Positions 1-31,498 of a stretch of DNA of 32,000 nt are shown one piece after another. Made by a program: the position numbers and the translations under genes. The notes under the pieces are model-generated. The model was not told the origin of the DNA. It was given only the letters and a program-made list of their open reading frames with translations, and did no database searches. The stretch spans positions 24,723-56,722 of the forward strand of contig CAZNTE010000007.1 of assembly GCA_964575895.1 (NCBI GenBank), in the 5' to 3' direction. The stretch's first letter is position 1. Every line of letters starts with the position of its first letter. This DNA is from an uncultured Tissierellaceae bacterium (GTDB lineage: Bacteria > Bacillota > Clostridia > Tissierellales > Tissierellaceae).

Positions 1-3000
1 CCAGAGGAAGTAACAGTAGACGAGGACTCGATAATACCAGCTGATCCAAATGTAAGAAACTTTAGCTACACTTTAGTCGAAGGTCAGGTGTATTTCAGGG
101 AAAATTCACAGATGATTAAACAAGCCCTAAAGGAAGAAGACCAGAATAGGCTAAAAGGAATGGTTGAACTTAGGGATATAACAAGAGGGTTGATAGAAGC
201 ACAGGCAGAGGATTATTCAGATAATGTAATAAAATCTATCCAAGATGCTTTAAATACTAAATATGATGAATTTATTGATAGATATGGAAGATTAAATTCT
301 AGGGAAAATGGGAAGTTATTTGATGAAGATTCTTCTTATGCCCTACTTTGCTCACTAGAAATTATGGATGATAATCAAGAGTTTAATAGAAAGGCAGATA
401 TCTTTACCAAAAGGACCATTAGAAAATATGTTGAAATTATAGAGGCAGAGACTTCAAGTGAAGCATTAGCCCTATCTATTAATGAGAAAGCTAGGGTTGA
501 TTTAGACTATATGTCAGATTTAACAGGTTTATCTAAAGAGGAGATAGTCAAAGATTTGGAGGGAATCATATTTAGAAATACTGATAAATCTATAGGTTTA
601 GAAATAGACCAAGGAATCTATGAAACAGCAGATGAATATTTATCTGGAAATGTACGGGGGAAACTAGCCTCTATAGAAAGGCTAATAAGTTTAGGAAATG
701 AAATTGGTGACTACTATGAAATAAATAGGAAGGCTTTGATAGAAGCACAACCAAGGGATTTGACAGCAAGTGAAATAACAGTAAGATTAGGGGCAACTTG
801 GTTACCAGTAAAGGATATAGAAAAGTTTATGTTTGAAACATTTGAAACACCAGGGTACAACAAATGGGACATAAATGTAAGATTTTCACCCTATACTGCA
901 AATTGGAATATTGAAGGTAAATCAGCAGACAAGGACAATGTACGAGCCTATATGACTTATGGAACTAGTAGGATCAATGCCTACAAGATTTTAGAAGAAA
1001 CACTTAATTTAAAGGATGTAAGAGTACTGGATAGGGTAATAGGCTCAGATGGTGTAGAAAAAACTATTATAAATAAAAAAGAAACTATGCTAGCTCAACA
1101 AAAACAAGAGGCTATAAAACAGGCCTTTGAAGATTGGATTTGGAAAGATCCCTCTAGAAGAGATAGACTAACTAAGTTATATAATGAAAAATTTAATTCA
1201 ATAAGATCAAGGGAGTATGATGGAAGTCATCTATTCTTTCCAGGTATGAATCCAAATATAGAACTAAGGGAACACCAGAAAAATGCCATAGCTCATACCT
1301 TATATGGGGGAAATACCCTTTTAGCCCATTGTGTCGGGGCAGGTAAAACATTTGAAATGGTAGCTTCAGCTATGGAGAGCAAAAGATTGGGACTATGTAA
1401 TAAATCATTATTTGTAGTACCTAACCATTTAACAGAACAATGGGGAAATGAATTTATGCAACTATATCCATCAGCCAGTATCTTAGTCGCCACCAAAAAA
1501 GATTTTACGCCTCAAAATAGGAAGAAGTTTTGTGGGAGGATAGCTACGGGAGATTATGATGCAATAATTATTGGCCATAGTCAATTTGAAAAAATACCAA
1601 TGTCAATTGAAAGACAGAGGTTGGAGATGGAAAGGCAAATAAGTGAAATAACAGATGGAATAGCAGAACTAAAGGATAGTAGAGGGGATAAATTCTCAAT
1701 AAAACAATTAGAGAAAACCAGAAAATCCTTAAAGGTCAAACTCCAAAAACTTAATGACCAAAGTAGGAAAGATGATGTAGTAAGTTTTGAAGAGTTAGGG
1801 ATAGATAGACTTTTTGTCGATGAGGCACATAGCTATAAGAATTTATTCCTATATACAAAAATGAGAAATGTAGCAGGTATAGGGCAAACAGAAGCACAAA
1901 AGTCTAGCGATATGTTTATGAAATGCAGGTATATGAATGAGATAACAGGGGGAAAGGGAATTATATTTGCTACAGGTACACCAATTTCTAATAGCATGAC
2001 GGAGCTTTATACTATGCAGAGATACTTACAGTATAATACTCTAAAAGAACAGGGTTTAAATCACTTTGATTCATGGGCAAGTACCTTTGGAGAAACAGTA
2101 ACAGCTATAGAATTAGCACCAGAAGGAACAGGATATAGACCAAAAACAAGGTTTGCTAGATTTTATAATCTACCAGAGTTAATGTCAATGTTCAAAGAAG
2201 TAGCTGATATAAAAACAGCTGATATGTTAGATTTACCAGTACCAGATGTGGAATATGAAACAATTGTAATAGAGCCAAGTCAGCACCAAAAAGATATGGT
2301 AGCAAGTTTAGTTGAAAGAGCAGAGATAGTAAGGGCAAGGGGGGTAGATCCAAGTGTGGATAACATGCTTAAGATAACCAATGATGGTAGAAAATTAGCC
2401 CTAGATCAAAGGCTAATAAATGAAAACCTGCCATCAGAAGAAGGCGGAAAGGTATCTATATGTGCAAATAATGTGTATAAGATTTGGGAAAATACAAGGG
2501 ACAAATCATTAGCACAGTTAATATTTTGTGATATGTCTACGCCAAAAGAGGATGGTAGTTATAATGTCTATGATGAAATAAAAAACCGATTAATTAATAA
2601 TGGAGTACCAAAGGAAGAAATAGCATTTATCCATGATGCAAAAACTGAAATCCAAAAGGATGAGTTATTTGCTAAAGTTAGAAGTGGTAATATAAGAGTA
2701 TTAATTGGTTCAACTCAGAAAATGGGTTCAGGAACCAATGCCCAAAATAAGTTAATAGCCTCACATGATTTAGATTGCCCTTGGAAGCCCTCAGACTTGG
2801 AACAAAGGATGGGGAGAATAGTAAGGCAAGGAAATGAAAATGAAAATGTAAAAATATTTAGATATGTAACAGAAAACTCATTTGATGCTTACTTATTTCA
2901 ATTGGTAGAAAATAAACAGAAATTCATATCCCAAATAATGACTTCAAAATCTCCAGTGAGATCAGCAGAAGATGTAGATGAATCAGCCCTATCCTATGCA

Positions 3001-4215
3001 GAAATTAAAGCCTTGGCTACAGGTAATCCATTAATTAAAGAAAAAATGGACTTAGATGTTCAGGTGGCAAAGTTAAACATGCTAAAATCCTCTTATTTAA
3101 GCGAAAAATACAGATTAGAGGATAATGTATTAAAAAATTATCCAAGTAGAATAAAAAGCCTCTCAGACCGTATAAAGGGATATGAGAAGGATATAGACCA
3201 CCTTAAAGAAAATACCATAATTAGTGAAAATGATAAAAGAAAATTCACTCCTATGAAAATAAATGAAAAAGTCTATATGGACAAGGAGGAGGCAGGAAAA
3301 GTATTATTAGAAACCTGTAAGACCCTAAAAAGTAGCCAACCTAAAATAATTGGTTCATATAGAGGATTTAAGATGGAATTAAGCTTTGATAGTTTTTCAA
3401 AAGAATTTAGGCTATCATTAAAAAACTCGCTAAGTCATTTCGTAAACTTAGGAAGTGATATTTTTGGAAATATTACAAGAATAGATAATATATTAGATGG
3501 TATGGAAGATAGGCTAAAAGGAACCAAAGAAGAACTGGTTAATGTAGAAACTCAACTCAAAAACTCTAAAGCAGAAATATCTAAACCATATAAACACGAG
3601 CAAGAATTAAAAGAAAAACAAATTAGGTTAGCAGAACTAGATTCATTATTAAACATGGAGACTAAGGGAGGAGAATTGGAAAAAGGTAATAGGGACCCTG
3701 AACTAGATATAGCAAAAGAATTAATTATGGATTTTATATCTATGGAATATGACGAAGAGTTACGTCCATTTAACTATACTGACCTAAAACATATAGAAAT
3801 AGCATATACGACTACAGAAGATGGAAGTCACGAAATACAAACAGAAATAGATCTGGTTGATTATTGTATAAATAAATATGTGGATGGACATTTAATCACT
3901 AGTGAGAGTTATCAAAGTTTAAATGATTTTATAGAGTATGCACTAAAACATCTGGACTTCTCAGACCTAGTTTATATCGACCAGGAAGCAATGGATAGGA
4001 TAGTTGACCCATTAGACCTAGATAGAGATAATGATGGGATTATAGACCGTTATGACGCAGATGATAAGGATTCCAGTGTATCCACCTATGGACAGGTTGA
4101 TGAAAGGGAAAACAAAAGAAAATCTATACTAGAAGACTTAAAAGGGAAAAAAGAAATGATAAGAGATAGGACAAAAACTTTCAGTGAAAGAGATTTAGCA
4201 AAAATAGAATTATAG
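1..4215 (+). CDS. C-terminal >1400 aa of a very large conjugative-element 'polyvalent' protein: SNF2/DEAD-like helicase core plus long coiled-coil and acidic tail. The 5' end lies upstream of the window.
   Basis: The reading frame is open from nt 1 ([29 protein letters not shown] precedes the GTG at 88), so GTG 88 is not the true start. Helicase motif I is [12 protein letters not shown] and motif II is [11 protein letters not shown] (DEAH codons 1819-1830). C-terminal helicase motifs are [13 protein letters not shown] and [11 protein letters not shown]. Stop is TAG 4213-4215. Confidence 0.85.
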
Positions 4216-4227
4216 GAGGAATAAATA

Positions 4228-4389
4228 ATGGCTAAAAATAAACTATTAGAGCTCTTTAATGTGCAAAATCACGAGGAACTAATGGAACATATTAAAAACA
4301 ATCCTGATGATAATAGGGTTAAAGAAATAAAAGAATTACTAGAACATTTTGAGATTAGCCTTGATAGTGAGGTGAAGGTTGATGAATAA
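4228..4389 (+). CDS. Small hypothetical protein (53 aa), paralogous to the N-terminus of the downstream RadC-like protein
   Basis: It is too short for the ORF track. SD AGGAGGA (4214-4220) lies 7 nt before ATG 4228. Its segment LLELFNVQNHEELMEHIKNNPD matches LYEQFNCSSKEELYEKVKNNDV of the next ORF at 11 of 22 positions. The stop overlaps the next gene's start. Confidence 0.45.
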   Translation: MAKNKLLELFNVQNHEELMEHIKNNPDDNRVKEIKELLEHFEISLDSEVKVDE

Positions 4390-6022
4390 TTTATATGAGC
4401 AATTCAATTGTAGTAGTAAAGAAGAATTATATGAAAAGGTTAAAAATAATGATGTGCAAGTTCAACCACTCTTAGATTTTCTGGAGTATGCTAAAGCAGA
4501 CATAAAAACTAAAAATAAAGCCATAACAAGTCCTAACATATTTGTAGACTATGTAAAATCAACCACATTACCTACAAAAGATGCAGGGACTTTTATTTTT
4601 GTAGATACAAAAAATCATCCAGTACTATTAAAAAGATCAAGACTCAGCAGGAAAAATGATTTAAAGGATGCCATTAGGGAAGGATTAATATCTGGTGGTA
4701 CCAGGACTTTCATAGGATTTAATATTGAAACACCAAATAAGAAGATTGAGGGAATTGAATCCTTATTTGAGGAAATAGGAATAAAGATAGTAGATACAAT
4801 AGGTTATAATAAAGATAAAGATTATTTTACATCAAAAAAAGCAGGGAATTCCTTTTATAATTCCAATTCTCATGAATTAGTAAGTGATGGTAATACAGAG
4901 TATTCAAAAGAAGACTTTAGTGTTAAGGAAAAATATATTGACTTCACTAGTCACTTTGCCACAAATGAATTGCTTGGATTGAATGTAATTGATAATCTTG
5001 AAAACATTAAAGACAGTTTAAAGATTGGGTTTCAACATCATCATCAGGAGATTTTAGGGATATTAGTTTATGATAGTAATGAAAAAATTATTTTAGCAGA
5101 GGAATTATTTAAAGGAACCATGGATGCCTCACTAGTAGATCCAAAGATAATAACCAAAAATATCTTGCAGTTAGAAGATGCAAAGGGGATGGCAATATTT
5201 CATAATCACCCCAGCGGTAACCCTGTACCTAGTAGAGAGGATATTATTATGACAGAAAGGGTGGCTAGGCTATGCGATATCTTAGAGGTAGAACTACTAG
5301 ACCACTTCATAATAGGAAAAGAAAAGACTCTTTCATTTTCTCAAGATGTTGAAAGTTTTCAAAGCAAAAATTATAGATACCAAGATAAAGCAATTAATAT
5401 GAAAAAAGTAAGTGAAAGGGCATCCAACTATGGAAAGGATAATAAAATAGAAGTTATCAAGATAGGGGATGTGGTCAAGACATCCCTTTCTGATTCCACT
5501 ACGGTTTTAGATGTAAGAGGGGATAATGCTTTACTATTTGACGGGAGACAATTTATAGAGGCATATGGTGTTCAAAGTAATGATGATAAGGTATTTTGGG
5601 GACAAGGTCATTATTATGACACCATACCAAGTAAAATATTTGATAATAATAAAAAAGACTATGAAGATATTAAAGACAATATAAATGATATGATAAATAG
5701 CAATTATCAAGACTTTGTAAAGGCCCTAATATCTATAGAAAAAGGTATAGAGGATGAAGATACTTTAGAAGAATTATATGACAGGTTTATGGATAATGAT
5801 GGGGTAAACCTTATAAATGATTATTTTGATGATATCATGTATGATTTGGAACATGAGAATATGGTTGGGGAATCAAAGGTAAAAGAAGCAAGCAAAATAA
5901 ATCAAGAAATAGCCAATATTAAATCAGAGCGTCAGTCAATATTAAATGAATTAAAGACCAAAAACAAAGTAATAAATAATAAAAAAGTTGAAATAATAAA
6001 AGTAGATGAAGTAACTTTATAA
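4379..6022 (+). CDS. RadC-like JAB/MPN (JAMM) domain protein with extra N- and C-terminal regions
   Basis: JAMM signature AIFHNHPSGNPVPSREDIIMTERV is present (HNHPSG codons 5201-5218). Start is TTG 4379 or, more likely, ATG 4382. RadC-like genes are typical companions of polyvalent proteins on conjugative elements. Confidence 0.8.
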   Translation: MMNNLYEQFNCSSKEELYEKVKNNDVQVQPLLDFLEYAKADIKTKNKAITSPNIFVDYVKSTTLPTKDAGTFIFVDTKNHPVLLKRSRLSRKNDLKDAIREGLISGGTRTFIGFNIETPNKKIEGIESLFEEIGIKIVDTIGYNKDKDYFTSKKAGNSFYNSNSHELVSDGNTEYSKEDFSVKEKYIDFTSHFATNELLGLNVIDNLENIKDSLKIGFQHHHQEILGILVYDSNEKIILAEELFKGTMDASLVDPKIITKNILQLEDAKGMAIFHNHPSGNPVPSREDIIMTERVARLCDILEVELLDHFIIGKEKTLSFSQDVESFQSKNYRYQDKAINMKKVSERASNYGKDNKIEVIKIGDVVKTSLSDSTTVLDVRGDNALLFDGRQFIEAYGVQSNDDKVFWGQGHYYDTIPSKIFDNNKKDYEDIKDNINDMINSNYQDFVKALISIEKGIEDEDTLEELYDRFMDNDGVNLINDYFDDIMYDLEHENMVGESKVKEASKINQEIANIKSERQSILNELKTKNKVINNKKVEIIKVDEVTL

Positions 6023-22297: not shown

Positions 22298-22431
22298 AGT
22301 GTGTGCTCCTTTCTTTTGGGTTTTAACAGGGGATTGGGGATACTCCCCAACAAGCTATCATCTATTTTTCAAATAGGAAAATAGGGGATAAATCGGAAGT
22401 GGGTACTCACTTCCTGTGCTTGCTAATATTC
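22298..22431 (-). other. Candidate oriT region (three short inverted repeats upstream of mobC)
   Basis: The inverted repeats are TTGGGGA-TAC-TCCCCAA (22334-22350), CTATTT-TTC-AAATAG (22362-22376) and GGAAGTG-GGTACT-CACTTCC (22395-22414). A position just upstream of mobC/relaxase is usual for oriT. No nic site could be assigned. Confidence 0.3.
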
Positions 22432-22749
22432 TTAAAACCAAAAGGCAAGACCCCTATTTATCTGCCTATTAATCATTCCTAATGTAGTAGGGAAGAATGA
22501 TATTATAATTCGTATTAGGCCTAAGAATAAAAATAATATTAAGACGCCTATAAAATCTAATGTGGTATATGGCCTGGTAATAAGCTGATAAATAAACAAG
22601 AAACCAAAGATTGTAGTAAATATATTTAGAAAAACATTGCTTAATCCACTTAAGATAGAAACTATAATATTGAAACAAAACAGTAAAATAAGAAGTAAAA
22701 ACATAATCAATTTTATTGGTAAAAGAAAGATATTCCCAATTAATTTCAT
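22432..22749 (-). CDS. Small hydrophobic membrane protein (about 3 TM segments), first gene of the mob operon
   Basis: 105 aa and almost entirely hydrophobic (LLPIKLIMFLLLILLFCFNIIVSIL, FTTIFGFLFIYQLI, IGVLILFLFLGLIRIIISFF). SD AAAGGGG lies 9 nt before the ATG. Confidence 0.6.
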   Translation of the reverse strand: MKLIGNIFLLPIKLIMFLLLILLFCFNIIVSILSGLSNVFLNIFTTIFGFLFIYQLITRPYTTLDFIGVLILFLFLGLIRIIISFFPTTLGMINRQINRGLAFWF

Positions 22750-22780
22750 CTATATCAGCCCCTTTCTATATCTTAATTTA

Positions 22781-22809
22781 ATTTTACTAGATAATAATAT
22801 ACAAGTCAA
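22781..22809 (-). promoter_or_regulatory. Sigma-A-type promoter for the membrane-protein/mobC/relaxase operon
   Basis: On the minus strand: TTGACT (22809-22804), a 17-nt spacer, then TAAAAT (22786-22781). Confidence 0.45.
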
Positions 22810-22869
22810 TATAATAAGACAAAGCAATGTCCAGTTAATTGCAATCTACTATTATGACCCAAAGATTAA

Positions 22870-22898
22870 TGGACAATAATATGTCCGTGATTTATAAT
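22870..22898 (+). promoter_or_regulatory. Promoter of the WYL-regulator operon with an overlapping inverted-repeat operator
   Basis: TGGACA (22870-22875), a 17-nt spacer, then TATAAT (22893-22898). The inverted repeat GGACA-ATAATA-TGTCC (22871-22886) covers the -35 and spacer. A third TGTCC half-site lies at about 22828-22832. Confidence 0.45.
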
Positions 22899-22923
22899 AT
22901 ATTTAAGGAAGGAAGTTGAATTT

Positions 22924-23511
22924 ATGAAGACTAATCGAATGTTTGAAATAATTATGATATTACTAAACGAGGGCGAAGTTAAGGCTAAGGATTTAGCAGA
23001 AAGGTTTAACTGTACCACCAAAACAATATATAGGGATGTAGAATATATAAAAGACAGCGGGATACCAATTATAAGTGAATTAGGGCGTAATGGAGGCTTT
23101 AAACTAGGTGCAGGATTCTCAAAGAATAATAAGAACTTAAGCCTTAAGGAACAACATACAATTATAAAAGTCTTAAAAGACCACGGTAGGATTCCAGAGG
23201 AACAATTAGACGAGATTATGACAACTATAGAAGGCCTCTTTAAGGATGATAGTATAGATTGGATAGATGTAGACTTAGGAGACCCTAAGGTAAATGATTA
23301 TTTTGAAAAGCTAAGGTATGCTATTATAAATAATATCTTGGTAGAATTATACTTAGGAAATAAAGAAGATAATTCCCAAGTAATCAAAGCAAAGCCAGAA
23401 AGGATTTTAATTAGAAGAGATGGAATATATTTGGCTTTTACTAATTTGGCAGATGAAGAATTAGAGGGAATAAAGCTTGGAGAAATTAAATATGTAAAAG
23501 ATATTAAATGA
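22924..23511 (+). CDS. YafY-type HTH + WYL-domain transcriptional regulator (short form, no WCX extension)
   Basis: The N-terminus NRMFEIIMILLNEGEVKAKDLAERFNCTTKTIYRDVEYIKDSGIPIISELGRNGGFKL is a classic HTH_11/YafY head. The C-terminus KPERILIRRDGIYLAFTNLADEELEGIKLGEIKYV fits the WYL-domain pattern, with IYL in place of WYL. Confidence 0.85.
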   Translation: MKTNRMFEIIMILLNEGEVKAKDLAERFNCTTKTIYRDVEYIKDSGIPIISELGRNGGFKLGAGFSKNNKNLSLKEQHTIIKVLKDHGRIPEEQLDEIMTTIEGLFKDDSIDWIDVDLGDPKVNDYFEKLRYAIINNILVELYLGNKEDNSQVIKAKPERILIRRDGIYLAFTNLADEELEGIKLGEIKYVKDIK

Positions 23512-23571
23512 AGATTATTAACATAAGGTAATGATATTAATAAATATAGGGTACTTGAAGGAGGAAATGTA

Positions 23572-25368
23572 TTGGATATTGAGAAAATAGCGACATCATG
23601 TATTAAAATGTTGTTATCTAGAAGTCCTTATCTTCAACCAATAATAGATGATAACGATAAGACACCAGTTTGGGATGGTGATATTTTTGTATATAATACC
23701 AAAGACAGATACAAGAAAAATGAAAATTTGATTGGAAGAGTTCCAGTTCAAGTGAAGGGGCATGAGGTTGAAAAGGTAGATAATAATGATAAAATAGAAA
23801 CTATTAAGTTTAGGGTAAAGATTGAAGATATAAAGAAATTTTTAACTGATGGAGGAGTAATCTATTTTGTTGTACATTTAGACAAAAATAATCAGAAGAT
23901 TTTTTATAATTCTTTGTTGCCTTTAGATTTAAGTCGATTAATAAAAACATATAGTGATCAGAAAACTTTTATGCTTGAATTTAAAACCCTACCACTTGAA
24001 GAGAAAGATTTAGCGGATATATTTTTAGATTTTATTAGAAACAGAGAGAAACAGCAAGGTACATTAGTTACAGATATTCTATACACTCATGATATTGAAA
24101 AGATAAGAGATGAAATAGAAGGGTTTAGTTTTAGTTATAGCACTGTAGAACCTAGCAAATCCATTCCTTTTAGAGAGCTAACTACTAGGGATTTCTATAT
24201 ATATGCTAAGCCTAAAGGCATAGGAAATCCAATCCCAATTGAAAAAGTAACTAATGCAACAATCGATTTTGAAGAAAAATTCAAAATATCTATAGGTGAA
24301 AAACTTTATTATAATGATGCTTATATACAGTGGAAAGAAGGAAGAGCTAATATTATTTGTGGTAAAGCAATAAAAATTAATATGGGTGAAACCAATGACC
24401 AAAATATTGGCACCTTTAATATTAATATTAAATTTAAGGGGACTTTGAATGAACAATTAAATGATTTATATTTCTTAGAAGGATTAATTACAAATAAACA
24501 ATTAATTATTGACGGACATATGATCCCTTATGGCAATTTTAAATTAAATGATGAAGATCGAAATCTTTTTGATAGAATAAAACAACTAGAATCTTTAAAA
24601 CAGTGCCTAGAATATTATGGTGTAAAAATTGATTTGGACCTTGATTCCATAACTGAAAAAGATGATTTTAAAATAACTTTCTTAATGGATAAAAAACCAT
24701 CTACAAAAAAATACAAGATAGATTTATCTAATGTAGGTATTTTAGGATTAGACATTGCGAATATTAGGATTTTATTATTTGTGGAAGAGAATAAAGAAGG
24801 AGAGTTTTACAAGGTTAAAAGTTTTTTCAAGGGGACTTGGAAAGTTAATTATATTTTATACGAAAATAATGAAAAAATAAGAGTGAGTCAGTTTTTAACT
24901 TTGGATAAAGAATCTTTGTTAGTGGACAACATTAATTCTGAAAGTATAATTGCAGATATAAAAAAATATCATTCTGGGAATAAAAATCTAGAATTTGTAA
25001 ATTTATTTTTGTTGGAATCTATTAAGGCATATGATGAGTATAGTAGTCAACAAATTGAACTCAAAAATTTAATATATGACTTATCAAGATGGCTTTATAA
25101 CGAAAGTAAAGAGGATTATATTTTCTTAAACTTAGCTCAAATAAAATATCGAATGGGTACATTAGATAAATATGATATTGATAAGATAATAGATATTGGC
25201 AAATTAAATAAAGATAATATAGAAATACAAGTAGGCGTATCAATTTTGTTAAATAAAAAAGAGGATGCGGAAGCATTAATAAAAAATATGAATCCAGAGC
25301 TTAAAGACTTATTTATTTCTTATCCCATTTATCACCTATTGGAGAATTGTGATATACAGAATATTTAA
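23572..25368 (+). CDS. 598-aa protein: DUF4365-like PD-(D/E)xK nuclease-fold N-terminal domain plus a long C-terminal region I cannot assign. Candidate defence effector.
   Basis: TTG start lies 7 nt after SD GAAGGAGG. The N-terminus DKTPVWDGDIFVY...GRVPVQVKG...VKIEDIKKFLTDGGVIYFVV (motif codons about 23674-23757) matches the D-G-D...Q-x-K plus 'yw...pvylv' pattern that I associate with DUF4365. I saw no recognisable motif in residues about 170-598. Confidence 0.7.
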   Translation: MDIEKIATSCIKMLLSRSPYLQPIIDDNDKTPVWDGDIFVYNTKDRYKKNENLIGRVPVQVKGHEVEKVDNNDKIETIKFRVKIEDIKKFLTDGGVIYFVVHLDKNNQKIFYNSLLPLDLSRLIKTYSDQKTFMLEFKTLPLEEKDLADIFLDFIRNREKQQGTLVTDILYTHDIEKIRDEIEGFSFSYSTVEPSKSIPFRELTTRDFYIYAKPKGIGNPIPIEKVTNATIDFEEKFKISIGEKLYYNDAYIQWKEGRANIICGKAIKINMGETNDQNIGTFNINIKFKGTLNEQLNDLYFLEGLITNKQLIIDGHMIPYGNFKLNDEDRNLFDRIKQLESLKQCLEYYGVKIDLDLDSITEKDDFKITFLMDKKPSTKKYKIDLSNVGILGLDIANIRILLFVEENKEGEFYKVKSFFKGTWKVNYILYENNEKIRVSQFLTLDKESLLVDNINSESIIADIKKYHSGNKNLEFVNLFLLESIKAYDEYSSQQIELKNLIYDLSRWLYNESKEDYIFLNLAQIKYRMGTLDKYDIDKIIDIGKLNKDNIEIQVGVSILLNKKEDAEALIKNMNPELKDLFISYPIYHLLENCDIQNI

Positions 25369-25394
25369 AAAAGGGACTAACCAAAAGGCTAGTC

Positions 25395-25973
25395 CTACCA
25401 TTTCTTACTATAACCCAAGTCAAACTGGTCTTCAATCCATTGAGGAATGTTTTTAGAATTCCTTTCAGTGGATTTTTCTTTTTCCCGTCTTTCTTTTGCT
25501 TCTTTAGACAAATCCCTGGTTTCAATGCATATACCATTTTCAAATATAAACTCTTCTATATACTCATAATTATAGGGATGATGAAATCCCATATGGACAT
25601 ATAATTCATCAATAAAATTGTCACCTATAAGAAAAGAACCTGTATAAGAGATTGGCAAGTTTATATTTTTATATACTAGATTACCGGCCAATGCATAATA
25701 ATTATCCTTCCAATCATTGATTTCAAAGGCTTCTACGCCATTGAGTATAGGTGGATTTTCACTATCATGAGATGTGTAAAGATCCTTCAGCATTAGATTA
25801 TTATTTTCATCTATAGCAAAGATGGCGATATATCCTCGCCAACAGGCACTACATGAAACAATAGGATTTAATCCAAGTTTACTGAAATCAAAAAAGTTTT
25901 CAGGGTCCTCTATTGCTACTATATCTAGGTCACTTTTGTTAAAGCTTAATTTATCATTTATTTGGGCAGTCAT
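25395..25973 (-). CDS. Hypothetical 192-aa protein, third gene of the XRE-ImmA operon
   Basis: Strong SD AAGGAG lies 6 nt before ATG 25973, which is 29 nt downstream of the ImmA stop. I recognised no family. The tail is charged (KEAKERREKEKSTERNSK). Confidence 0.7.
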   Translation of the reverse strand: MTAQINDKLSFNKSDLDIVAIEDPENFFDFSKLGLNPIVSCSACWRGYIAIFAIDENNNLMLKDLYTSHDSENPPILNGVEAFEINDWKDNYYALAGNLVYKNINLPISYTGSFLIGDNFIDELYVHMGFHHPYNYEYIEEFIFENGICIETRDLSKEAKERREKEKSTERNSKNIPQWIEDQFDLGYSKKW

Positions 25974-26002
25974 ATCGGTCTCCTTTATAAAATAATTTTA
26001 AA

Positions 26003-29159: not shown

Positions 29160-29374
29160 ATCCCAAATATTTGTACATTGAAAATTTAATAGACCAAGCA
29201 GATACATTCTGTTCAGTATGAGCCTAGAAATAGAGAAATACTTATAATTATTTATTCTCTTATAACTACACTGTGGTACTAGAAGAGCCACAGGCGAAGA
29301 TGTACTGGCAGGTTAAAGATACTTCCGTATAGCCACAGCACGAGCGTTAAAAGCGTCCCACGCAATGGGTACGG

Positions 29375-29394
29375 CTCCTCATAAGAATGAGGAG
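29375..29394 (+). promoter_or_regulatory. Anti-SD hairpin in the leader of the recombinase module
   Basis: CTCCTCAT-AAGA-ATGAGGAG is a perfect 8-bp stem. The right arm overlaps SD GGAGAGG (29391-29397) of the small ORF that starts at 29403. Confidence 0.4.
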
Positions 29395-29402
29395 AGGTAG
29401 AA

Positions 29403-29498
29403 ATGCCTATGGAGTGGTTCTCTAACCATCGTCTGCAATGTCAGAAAACTTATTTACATATTAAGAGAATAGGCAATTTCAATTGGGAGGAGAGATGA
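29403..29498 (+). CDS. Candidate 31-aa ORF (MPMEWFSNHRLQCQKTYLHIKRIGNFNWEER)
   Basis: SD GGAGAGG lies 5 nt before ATG 29403. The stop TGA 29496-29498 overlaps ATG 29495 (ATGA) and lies 3 nt before ATG 29501 of the next gene. It is too short for the ORF track. Confidence 0.3.
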   Translation: MPMEWFSNHRLQCQKTYLHIKRIGNFNWEER

Positions 29499-29500
29499 GA

Positions 29501-29749
29501 ATGAATAAAAATACAAAGAGTCTATTTGAAGATGTGGATTTAACTATAATACCAGATATAAAGGATATTCATATTGATCCCTTACTTCCAATAGAAAAAA
29601 GGATAGAAAAATACATTAAACAAAATCCTTATCCAGAGATATTAAAGATAGGTGATTACCATGTTAAATGTTCATATAGGGAAGGGGCAGGTAGATTAGA
29701 AAATAGATTAGATGAATATTTTAATTATTTGGCTGGAAAACAATATTAA
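29501..29749 (+). CDS. Small conserved protein of the kind found upstream of large serine recombinases in Clostridia-type elements (DUF6870-like, from memory)
   Basis: 82 aa from ATG 29501, with SD GGGAGGAG (29485-29492) 8 nt upstream. IKDIHIDPLLPIEKRIEKYIKQNPYPEILKIGDYHVKCSYREGAGRLENRLDEYFNYL resembles the '...D..LPkEeRi.dfi.q..NPYcf..G...VK.sf......LedrL..yf' pattern. The track's TTG 29483 start would include the SD itself. Confidence 0.65.
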   Translation: MNKNTKSLFEDVDLTIIPDIKDIHIDPLLPIEKRIEKYIKQNPYPEILKIGDYHVKCSYREGAGRLENRLDEYFNYLAGKQY

Positions 29750-29854: not shown

Positions 29855-31498
29855 ATGAAAAAAATAAATGTAGCCCTTTATCTTCGTCTATCCAAGGATG
29901 ATGGAGATGAAAGCAGGCAAGAAAGTAATAGTATCACCAATCAAAGAAATTTATTAAGGACGTTTGTAAAGTCCCATGAAAATATGGTTATCTATGATGA
30001 ATATATAGATGACGGATTTAGTGGGGCTAATTTTCAACGTCCTTCTTTTATTAGAATGATTGCTGATATGGAATTAGGACTTATTGATTGTGTCATTACT
30101 AAGGATCTTTCAAGATTTGGAAGGGATTATATTGAGGCTGGAAGGTATATCCAAAGGATATTTCCTAATTATGGAGTTAGATTTATAGCTGTAAATGATA
30201 ATTATGACAGTGCTACAGCTGACCAGGCAGAAGCTAATTTAGTCTTACCAGTTAAGAATTTTGTAAATGATAGTTATTGTAGGGATATATCAACAAAGGT
30301 TAGAACAAGCCAACATATTAAAAGATTAAATGGTGAATATATAGGAAGTTTTCCTGTGTTTGGATATAAGAAGGATCCAAACAATAAAAATCAACTTATT
30401 GTAGATGTAGAGGCATCAGAAATTGTTAAAATGATTTTCCAATGGAAGTTAAAAGGATTTAGCTCAAAGGCAATAGCTGATAAATTAAATGTTCTAAAAA
30501 TAGATTCGCCTCTAACATATAAAAAACGAAAGGGTAGCAAATTTAGGACTAGCTTTAATGATAATAAAGAGACAAAGTGGACAGCTGTAAGTGTTGGTAG
30601 AGTTCTTAGTAATGCTGTTTATATAGGAATATTGGAGCAGGGTAAATCTGCTAAAATTAATTATAAACTTAAAAAGGAAGTTGACAAACCTAAAGAAGAC
30701 TGGATTATAGTTGAAGATGCCCATGAGACAATAGTATCCAAAGAAATATTTGCTAATGTACAAAGATTACTAAAAAGAGATTTAAGATTAGAGGATAGTA
30801 AGAAAAATCCTCATATATTTTCTGGGATGTTATTTTGTTCTGATTGTGGCAGAGCATTAATTAGAAGAGTCAATAACTATAAAGGCAATAAGAGGGTATT
30901 TTATATTTGTTCTAGTTATAACAATGGGAAATCATGTACCCGACATAGTATATCAGAGGATGTGCTAATAGAAATTGTATTATCAGCTTTAAACAAGCAT
31001 ATATCTTTGACTGAATATTATTGGGAGGAAGTAAATAAATTAGCAAATAACAATTTTTCAGAGGAAGATGCTTTAGAGTTAGATAATAGAATAAGATTAT
31101 TAGAAGAAGAAAGAAAAAAATATGAAGCTTTAAAATCATCTTTATATGAAGATATGAAGGATGGATTAATAGATGAAAAAGAATTTGCTAGCTTTAGGTC
31201 AAACTACACCTTGAAAATAGATGAAATAAAACGAGCAATGAAAAATCACCAGGAATTAATCGGCAAAGTGTTCAAAAAGGGAATAGATTCTAAAGAAAAG
31301 ATAAATAACATACTACAATTTAAAAATTTAACAGAATTAGACAGAATGAGTATGGTCTTATTTATAGACAAAATTATAATTGGTGAGAATAAAGAGATAG
31401 AAATAGAATTTAACCATGAAGACGAATTAAATATAATAAGCAAAATTTTAGATGAAACAGATAACTTTATACCACAGGCTAAGAGAGAGGTGGTATAA
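29855..31498 (+). CDS. Large serine recombinase (resolvase N-domain + recombinase domain + zinc ribbon + coiled coil)
   Basis: 547 aa. The catalytic-Ser motif is VALYLRLSKDDG. VITKDLSRFGRDY is also present, and a Cys cluster (CSDCGRAL...YICSSYNNGKSC) forms the zinc ribbon. SD GGGAGGAAG is present. Confidence 0.93.
   Translation: MKKINVALYLRLSKDDGDESRQESNSITNQRNLLRTFVKSHENMVIYDEYIDDGFSGANFQRPSFIRMIADMELGLIDCVITKDLSRFGRDYIEAGRYIQRIFPNYGVRFIAVNDNYDSATADQAEANLVLPVKNFVNDSYCRDISTKVRTSQHIKRLNGEYIGSFPVFGYKKDPNNKNQLIVDVEASEIVKMIFQWKLKGFSSKAIADKLNVLKIDSPLTYKKRKGSKFRTSFNDNKETKWTAVSVGRVLSNAVYIGILEQGKSAKINYKLKKEVDKPKEDWIIVEDAHETIVSKEIFANVQRLLKRDLRLEDSKKNPHIFSGMLFCSDCGRALIRRVNNYKGNKRVFYICSSYNNGKSCTRHSISEDVLIEIVLSALNKHISLTEYYWEEVNKLANNNFSEEDALELDNRIRLLEEERKKYEALKSSLYEDMKDGLIDEKEFASFRSNYTLKIDEIKRAMKNHQELIGKVFKKGIDSKEKINNILQFKNLTELDRMSMVLFIDKIIIGENKEIEIEFNHEDELNIISKILDETDNFIPQAKREVV

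Follow-up and report, generated by a model that had tools for sequence, protein, structure and literature searches.

What does a 598-amino-acid protein do in the genome of an uncultured Tissierellaceae bacterium, and does the short regulator gene in front of it belong to the same function? The two genes lie on the plus strand of a 32,000-nucleotide stretch of contig CAZNTE010000007.1, referred to here as the window. In the list of open reading frames (ORFs), the regulator comprises 195 amino acids from an ATG start (22924-23511) and the larger gene opens with TTG (23572-25368). A preliminary description of the locus had proposed the pair as a two-gene defence module. The analysis presented here leads to a different answer in which the larger protein is a candidate stand-alone defence nuclease, acting as a single protein against phages or other mobile genetic elements (MGEs), under a repressor of defence cargo. 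A probability of about 0.55 is assigned to this reading.

The predicted activity resides in residues 1-165 (23572-24066, plus strand), which are assigned as a DUF4365/DREN nuclease domain of the PD-(D/E)xK type with its predicted active site intact. In an AlphaFold2 model of the full-length chain built on 34 relatives (pLDDT 88.6, pTM 0.76), the protein is organized into three parts, the first being an alpha/beta domain formed by these residues. When the model was compared with the PDB by Foldseek, the best ten matches were all DREN-APAZ chains of SPARDA (E 5e-4 to 2e-2, probability 1.0, about 140 residues). Pfam DUF4365 is matched by 19 of the 34 family members (E <= 0.01; best 1e-6), and one relative has a precomputed PF14280 match. 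A D-G-D...Q-V-K motif and a nuclease fold of this type had been anticipated by the preliminary description, and both are borne out by these searches and by residue conservation. The motif is present as W34-D35-G36-D37 ... Q60-V61-K62; across 84 members, with identity down to about 21%, D35, Q60 and K62 are 100% invariant, W34-D35-G36 is 99-100% invariant, and E4 and D29 reach 99%. Q60 and K62 correspond to Q62 and K64 of TmuRE, a DUF4365 protein in which these two residues form the proposed active site and Q62A/K64A served as an inactive control (PMC10810196). With QxK placed almost identically in the two proteins, Q60 and K62 are the predicted catalytic pair. Three substitutions had been suggested as tests, two of which (D35A and K62A) fall on fully invariant residues and retain their value. 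The third, D37A, is a poor target because D37 is conserved in only 20% of the 84 members and is not a conserved catalytic residue.

The nuclease domain is part of a protein that recurs in the same form throughout a large family. A word-indexed search gave 53 relatives. Exhaustive searching by profile gave many more, with 3,314 representative clusters (50% identity) at E <= 1e-3, of which 1,874 pass E <= 1e-30. Among the 150 best-scoring clusters, nearly all are 580-610 amino acids long and are matched from end to end. The large number of clusters and the near-uniform length and full-length matching of the best ones point to a single fixed architecture. The family is spread over Bacillota, Bacteroidota, Actinomycetota and others, where its members are annotated as 'hypothetical' or 'DUF4365 domain-containing protein'. 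Since homologs share an identical N-terminal MDIEK, the TTG start of the window gene is supported. In PHROGs, the protein has a full-length match to phrog_9827, a family of unknown function (E 8e-71). Neither NCBIfam nor PADLOC 2.0 (E <= 0.1) gave a match to the window copy. Across 34 members, PADLOC 2.0 returned two isolated weak matches only, to AbiGii (9e-4) and PDC-M02A (7e-3), and the HEC/PDC models do not match. A literature search for DUF4365 retrieved SPARDA, Divona and unrelated mentions, and the 598-amino-acid family was not found there.

The preliminary description had left the remaining 430 or so residues without an assignable family, and they stayed so in Pfam, NCBIfam, PADLOC, the PDB and a Foldseek search of the middle domain. 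The middle region, residues 166-455 (24067-24936, plus strand), is beta-rich and of unassigned fold, with Y211, P222 and N453 invariant. Modelled alone with AlphaFold2 it reaches a pLDDT of 88.9 and a pTM of 0.80, and it has no match in Pfam, NCBIfam or PADLOC. The C-terminal domain, residues 456-598 and the stop codon (24937-25368, plus strand), is predicted to be all-helical and TPR-like; residues 456-596 are helical in the model and give weak Foldseek matches to TPR proteins. Within this domain L481, D488, N520, Q523, R527 and P585 are 100% invariant in the 84 members, as is N453 in the linker; conservation at these sites is no less strict than in the nuclease active site. Both the middle and the C-terminal domain are acidic (pI 5.3 and 4.9). 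No Walker A motif was found in the protein and no NTPase family matched it in Pfam, NCBIfam or PADLOC, while PDB sequence searches with the protein and with the family profile gave chance-level matches only. From sequence and models, the protein is a known effector domain set in a new, very common architecture, with a middle domain of no assigned fold.

The nuclease domain is also found with other partners. Relatives P0052 and P0053 (P-numbers label relatives, and L-numbers loci, in the present analysis) share 36% identity over residues 3-169 and continue into canonical TPR repeats, and P0051 has another C-terminus; the shared N-terminal domain of these relatives is 36-37% identical to that of the window protein. 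A profile of the middle and C-terminal part retrieved only full-length family members among the matches listed, with no other N-terminal effector. The same nuclease domain thus occurs fused to TPR repeats (P0052/P0053) and to another C-terminus (P0051), and its partner is APAZ in the case of SPARDA and crr6 in that of Divona, a validated single-gene system. This modularity counts in favour of the stand-alone reading.

The preliminary description did not recognize this architecture in any named system, and that assessment held when PADLOC 2.0 was run without a match and the protein proved distinct from SPARDA, Divona and Avs. The resemblance to SPARDA (NbaSPARDA, XauSPARDA, TmuRE-Ago) is the closest, as both place an N-terminal nuclease of about 150-165 amino acids and of the same fold ahead of a larger non-catalytic part, with QxK at a nearly equal position. 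The 598-amino-acid protein nevertheless lacks APAZ. Only the nuclease part of about 140 amino acids aligns, the C-terminal 430 residues being unrelated, and there is no match to SPARDA chains at the sequence level. Its neighbours in the window (the regulator, a 192-amino-acid ORF, ImmA and XRE) do not include an Argonaute gene, and the Pfam families most often met in directly adjacent genes at 80 loci include no Argonaute-type family. The protein appears to act alone. Divona is a single-gene anti-phage cassette from Vibrio chromosomal integrons that combines DUF4365 with crr6 (bioRxiv 10.1101/2024.07.02.601686). Compared by domain make-up, Divona resembles the present family in that one polypeptide carries a DUF4365 nuclease at its N-terminus and an unrelated domain at its C-terminus, but the Divona partner is crr6 (PF08847), for which Pfam gives no match in the 598-amino-acid protein. 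The Avs/STAND NTPases likewise join an N-terminal nuclease effector to a C-terminal helical-repeat region. Unlike them, the present protein has no NTPase domain or Walker A motif, is much smaller, and carries an invariant helical domain rather than a variable surface.

The surroundings of the family genes were compared at about 86 non-redundant loci, drawn from 14 loci obtained by exact-protein and phage look-ups together with the best 80 of 211 relatives on one-genome-per-species contigs; genes were called and clustered with purpose-written scripts. The immediate neighbours are heterogeneous, and many are restriction-modification (RM), BREX or mobile-element genes. A PADLOC scan of the neighbours again found mainly Type III methylases. 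The family gene lies directly 3' of BrxL at L005, L012 and L071. It overlaps the end of an MmeI-type enzyme beside HEPN/MNT pairs at L007, and at L004 it stands between a PLD-helicase resembling a Type IV restriction endonuclease, a DEAD helicase and GmrSD. At L009 the carrier is a conjugative element of Bacteroidota, with an AlbA_2/Schlafen protein next to the gene. Further neighbours include PLD, TIR, AbiJ, McrBC and MTES_1575 genes. In phages, the gene adjoins a SEFIR protein in Clostridium botulinum phage D-1873 and an integrase in C. difficile phages, and it is carried by 19 plasmids of Bacillota and Actinomycetota. The defence-island and mobile-element setting proposed in the preliminary description therefore extends to the relatives, which occupy RM, BREX, prophage, plasmid and integrative conjugative element contexts.

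A single operon recurs among these loci, at about 15-17 of the 86 by raw count; at about 15 of them the family gene has DUF4391 on one side and a Type III methylase on the other. It consists of an SNF2 helicase (about 1,075-1,209 amino acids), DUF4391, the family gene, a Type III methylase, a variable insert (e.g. YhcG) and a Type III Res. The embedded copies, whose pairwise identity falls as low as 26% (median 37%), are distributed over three or more divergent subclades, and these subclades also hold copies that are not embedded. Such a mixture of embedded and non-embedded copies fits a preferred site of insertion better than a fixed partnership, and an obligate link to the Type III RM operon was rejected because the two kinds of members intermix in the clustering.

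The operon was recorded as SNF2-DUF4391-Mod-Res at L018 (6071-17878) and also at L029, L043, L044, L048, L057, L062, L064, L073, L077, L080, L086 and L087. Its Mod protein matches N6_N4_Mtase and its Res protein ResIII and RE_endonuc. There are two variable insertion points, one after DUF4391 and one between Mod and Res (e.g. YhcG/DUF1016). The role of the SNF2/DUF4391 pair seems to be undescribed in the literature searched.

Insertion into other systems is a habit with precedent. In experiments by Payne et al., genes nested within defence operons often proved to have a defence function themselves (bioRxiv 10.1101/2024.01.29.577857). The family resembles such embedded genes (BrxU/GmrSD and the HEC/PDC candidates) in being a solo gene that is nested within BREX and RM operons or stands last in them. 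It differs in belonging to another protein family, with no meaningful PADLOC 2.0 match among the 34 members.

Turning to the regulator, the preliminary description had identified it as a YafY/WYL protein with its own operator. The helix-turn-helix (HTH) domain, the homology and a conserved operator all stand, while the WYL domain is weakly detectable and the WCX domain is absent. HTH_11 occupies residues 5-58 (Pfam, E 6.5e-14), and the match to PADLOC's 'WYL' model covers its positions 1-170 out of 229 (E 2e-18). The regulator belongs to a family of 183-214-amino-acid proteins that align to HTH_11-WYL-WCX proteins of about 300 amino acids through the HTH, the linker and the WYL domain and then stop. 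No WCX domain (PF25583) is present, as the regulator ends where WYL ends and its canonical relatives run about 100 residues further. Pfam WYL (PF13280) has no match in the window regulator at E <= 0.1. For the ortholog at L015 (Senegalia), the model is matched over positions 3-68 of 70 (E 1.3e-3), its 19.2 bits falling below the cut-off of 21.8. An hhalign comparison of the C-terminal half of the regulator with canonical WYL proteins gave P 0.0014 over 64 columns. On these alignments, the regulator is HTH_11 with a divergent WYL-like domain, homologous to regulators of the YafY/BrxR/CapW type, the WYL similarity being weak. The winged-HTH-WYL-WCX regulators BrxR (BREX) and CapW (CBASS) are reported to repress defence operons, and CapW is released by single-stranded DNA (PMC9122601, PMC9122589, PMC9122588, PMC11662680). 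The present regulator shares with them the N-terminal HTH_11, homology over the WYL region, a gene position just upstream of varied defence genes and a palindrome over its own promoter. It is about 100 amino acids shorter, however, lacks WCX, and in the window copy has a WYL region too divergent for Pfam.

The layout reported in the preliminary description, with two ORFs 60 nucleotides apart, a TGGACA-17-TATAAT promoter and a GGACA-N6-TGTCC palindrome over the -35 element, was found in full. The sigma-70-type promoter (22870-22898, plus strand) comprises TGGACA (22870-22875), a 17-nucleotide spacer and TATAAT (22893-22898). It scores 11/12, which makes it joint best in 22300-26000 with an intragenic site at 24923-24950, and both hexamers are kept in the ortholog at L001. 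The proximal operator palindrome O1, GGACA-ATAATA-TGTCC (22871-22886), overlaps the -35 element and part of the spacer, and a distal operator-like palindrome O2, GACA-AAGCAA-TGTC, lies at 22818-22831. Their common core, GACA-N6-TGTC, occurs exactly twice in the window (22818-22831 and 22872-22885), both times in the intergenic region upstream of the regulator. The chance expectation is 0.14, and two copies were reached in none of 100 shuffles. Among 14 fetched loci, representing seven distinct regulator orthologs and three kinds of cargo, the core is found about 50-67 nucleotides 5' of the start codon of every orthologous regulator, whatever the cargo. One copy is present in L102 and L103, and two copies spaced 32-55 bp apart are present in L001-L003, L015 and L095-L101. 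There is thus strong evidence, statistical as well as positional, for GACA-N6-TGTC as a candidate operator. Between the two genes, the intergenic spacer of exactly 60 nucleotides (23512-23571, plus strand) carries a ribosome-binding site, GAAGGAGG, at 23557-23564. No terminator-like site was found within it, and the genes are inferred to be co-transcribed.

The idea of a dedicated two-gene module does not survive the comparison with sister elements. The regulator is followed directly by the DUF4365 protein in the window and in L001-L003. In L015 (4121-10565), L100 (2437-8989) and L095-L099, the regulator is followed by GajA-GajB (Gabija) and then by the DUF4365 protein. GajA in these elements is an OLD-TOPRIM/AAA_21 protein of 663-664 amino acids and GajB a UvrD protein of 602-606 amino acids; in L095-L099, an insertion sequence (DDE_Tnp_1, opposite strand) lies between the regulator and gajA. 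Elsewhere the cargo is different again. It consists in L101 (6001-12269) of two small ORFs, an ADP-ribosylglycohydrolase/DUF6508 protein and a 989-amino-acid GmrSD/DUF4268 protein, and in L102 (565-4694) and L103 of a DUF6884 and GIY-YIG protein, a 365-amino-acid ORF and a canonical 321-amino-acid WYL protein. Finding the same regulator and operator ahead of differing cargo suggests a repressor of a variable defence-cargo slot and not a dedicated partner of the nuclease. Across the 86 or so non-redundant loci, a same-strand regulator that lies directly upstream and heads the operon is limited to the window's own Tissierellales mobile-element lineage. HTH_11-WYL genes occur elsewhere in the neighbourhood at two further loci, L061 and L070, and no regulator was found in the 750-nucleotide gap upstream of the L012 copy. 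A WYL regulator as a family-wide partner was rejected, with an HTH_11-type neighbour within 10 kb in only 3 of 87 loci. A Gabija deletion scar in the window was also considered and set aside, as the intergenic spacers are too divergent from those of the Gabija-bearing sister elements for the comparison to be informative.

Collectively, the defence-type neighbours, the precedent for embedding and the presence of Gabija in sister elements support a defence role. A mechanism can be proposed on this basis. The regulator would bind the two GACA-N6-TGTC palindromes, one of which covers the -35 element and spacer of its own promoter, and would repress its own gene and, by read-through of the terminator-free 60-nucleotide spacer, the nuclease gene. 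By analogy with BrxR and CapW, repression may be relieved by a signal at the WYL-like domain, the signal for CapW being single-stranded DNA or DNA damage. The nuclease itself could be kept inactive by its C-terminal two-thirds. The analogy here is with SPARDA, where DREN is monomeric and inactive alone and becomes a collateral DNase upon tetramerisation within filaments (PMC12205087). The middle and TPR-like domains may then represent the sensing and assembly part. On binding of a cue from infection at the invariant N453/D488/N520/Q523/R527 site, the protein would oligomerise and degrade DNA. As an outcome, the infected cell would be killed or arrested, or the invader destroyed. The gene would work alone, and its presence inside RM and BREX operons would reflect the embedding habit of defence genes. 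Activation by assembly, taken as a part of its own, is considered less probable than the overall reading and somewhat less likely than not.

Several points weigh against this reading. The family is known from sequence, neighbourhood and predicted structure alone, and oligomerisation is a proposal only. In the window copy, the Pfam DUF4365 match (PF14280; residues 35-117) is sub-threshold, with 19.3 bits against a cut-off of 24.3 and E 1.2e-3. Residues 166-455 have no Foldseek match in the PDB (best E 0.32, probability 0.16 or lower), so no analogue backs a sensing role for them. The strictly invariant C-terminal polar cluster is unlike a fast-evolving sensor of phage proteins. On the side of control, signal sensing by the regulator is uncertain because WCX is missing and WYL marginal, and most family members are without a dedicated regulator, which suggests that regulation is not integral to their function. 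The neighbour tallies are raw counts and not enrichment figures. Lastly, the family may already bear a name in DefenseFinder or in newer PADLOC releases.

The alternative that survives best, though it is considered unlikely, is direct cleavage of invader DNA, with the protein acting as an enzyme of restriction type. It would most likely be a Type IV modification-dependent enzyme in which the C-terminal two-thirds read DNA or its modification. Type IV enzymes such as BrxU/GmrSD are typically carried in or beside methylation-based systems (BREX, Type I/III RM). The positions repeatedly taken by the family gene, within Type III RM operons and last in BREX and MmeI loci, are the niches of GmrSD and BrxU, the PD-(D/E)xK fold is suitable, and the invariant polar cluster could be a fixed site for reading nucleic acid. 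Against this, no reader domain was found. Pfam, NCBIfam, PADLOC and a Foldseek search of residues 166-455 gave none of the known readers of modified DNA (SRA, EVE, PUA, YTH, DUF262, McrB-N and similar), although a reader of new fold is possible. The middle and C-terminal domains are moreover acidic, and the closest characterized relatives of the nuclease are collateral nucleases that need activation.

A bolder version of the stand-alone nuclease can also be formulated, although it is improbable. The family would constitute a very widespread and so far unrecognised class of autonomous immune nuclease in which a sensor of new fold and a helical domain with an invariant N-D-N-Q-R pocket read a conserved signal, not a variable phage protein, and assemble DREN into an active oligomer. 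Such a protein would be the equivalent of SPARDA without an Argonaute and would serve as a second line behind methylation-based immunity. With the same reserve, the conserved signal might be a small molecule, a peptide tail or Type III RM or BREX machinery that has stalled or been inhibited.

A dependent role is very unlikely. The protein would be an accessory or guard of the SNF2-DUF4391-Type III RM operon or of BREX, firing when that machinery is inhibited and having no autonomy of its own. The exact recurrent slot between DUF4391 and Mod, seen at 13-15 loci and kept across divergent subclades with identity down to 26%, is what such a guard would predict, as are the further copies directly 3' of BrxL, and a strictly conserved site would suit a conserved host partner. 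Yet such an operon is missing from the vicinity of most loci (about 80%), embedded members are mixed with the others in the clustering, and copies exist in phages, on plasmids and beside unrelated genes. In the window itself, BREX is parted from the gene by an opposite-strand mob operon. Just as improbable is a function for the mobile element itself (inter-element competition, exclusion, addiction, or processing of the DNA of an integrative mobilizable element (IME) or prophage, silenced by the element's repressor), for while an IME with relaxase, MobC and serine recombinase, a Bacteroidota conjugative element, prophages beside integrase, plasmids and a lower GC content would fit it, defence genes share exactly such a distribution, the genes alongside belong to RM, BREX, Gabija and GmrSD and not to replication or transfer, and there is no consistent tie to one recombinase or relaxase family.

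If the stand-alone defence nuclease is validated, more than 3,000 clusters (50% identity) would be added to the catalogue of single-gene defence. The DREN/DUF4365 collateral nuclease would become a reusable effector module beyond Argonaute systems, and a new sensor fold would be available for study. The DREN/DUF4365 collateral nuclease is already used for nucleic-acid detection. Apart from the nuclease, the short WCX-less WYL-type repressor and its GACA-N6-TGTC operator mark a cargo slot in Tissierellales mobile elements that takes up different defence genes, and this mark makes it easy to look for more of them. Candidate defence families are numerous, but interest in this one is raised by its size and uniformity, by its unexplained invariant C-terminal site and by the clean regulator/operator system.

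The wider window agrees with the context given in the preliminary description, with BREX/Abi upstream, an opposite-strand mob operon and an XRE-ImmA module. By its gene content, the locus is the cargo region of an IME in a Tissierellales-like genome, and the nearest relatives are Tissierellales (Sporanaerobacter, Tissierella and Senegalia). Upstream are an SNF2 helicase, a RadC protein, a complete type 1 BREX system (BrxA, BrxB, BrxC, PglX, PglZ, BrxL) and Abi_2, and an opposite-strand MobC/relaxase operon with a 105-amino-acid membrane ORF lies between Abi_2 and the regulator. A large serine recombinase gene is located at 29855-31498. The GC content of the 598-amino-acid gene is 26.4%, compared with 31.3% for the window and 32.6% for BREX, which fits separately acquired cargo. 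The membrane ORF (22432-22749, minus strand) is predicted to be multi-pass and is conserved, divergent from the regulator, in all sister elements. A promoter-like site on the minus strand, TTGACT-17-TAAAAT (22809-22781), adjoins the distal operator, so the regulator might also influence the membrane/MobC/relaxase operon.

Downstream of the 598-amino-acid gene, a terminator-like hairpin (25374-25395, minus strand) with a 9-bp stem, 5 GC pairs and a minus-strand T-run parts it from a convergent 192-amino-acid ORF and could terminate transcription in both directions. The genes that follow on the minus strand are XRE (26972-26556), an ImmA/IrrE metalloprotease (26530-26003) and the 192-amino-acid ORF (25973-25395). 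Since they follow one another head to tail and are only 25 and 29 nucleotides apart, they are probably a single operon. ImmA and XRE also match PADLOC models of the capP/capH type. The 192-amino-acid protein had no match in Pfam, NCBIfam, PHROGs or PADLOC; its ORF is whole in L001 and split in L002 and L003.

At the other end of the window, the SNF2-family helicase (1,375 amino acids) and the RadC/JAB protein (547 amino acids) occupy 88-6022, on the strand of BrxA and 5' of it. RadC is the -1 neighbour of the DUF4365-family gene in 4 of 80 other loci. No tRNA was found, and no RNA family lies within the two-gene interval. The Rfam pemK RNA motif (RF02913) is present at 29313-29412 on the plus strand, with 43 bits against a gathering score of 34.8, and it lies 5' of an 88-amino-acid ORF (29483-29749) and the serine recombinase gene.

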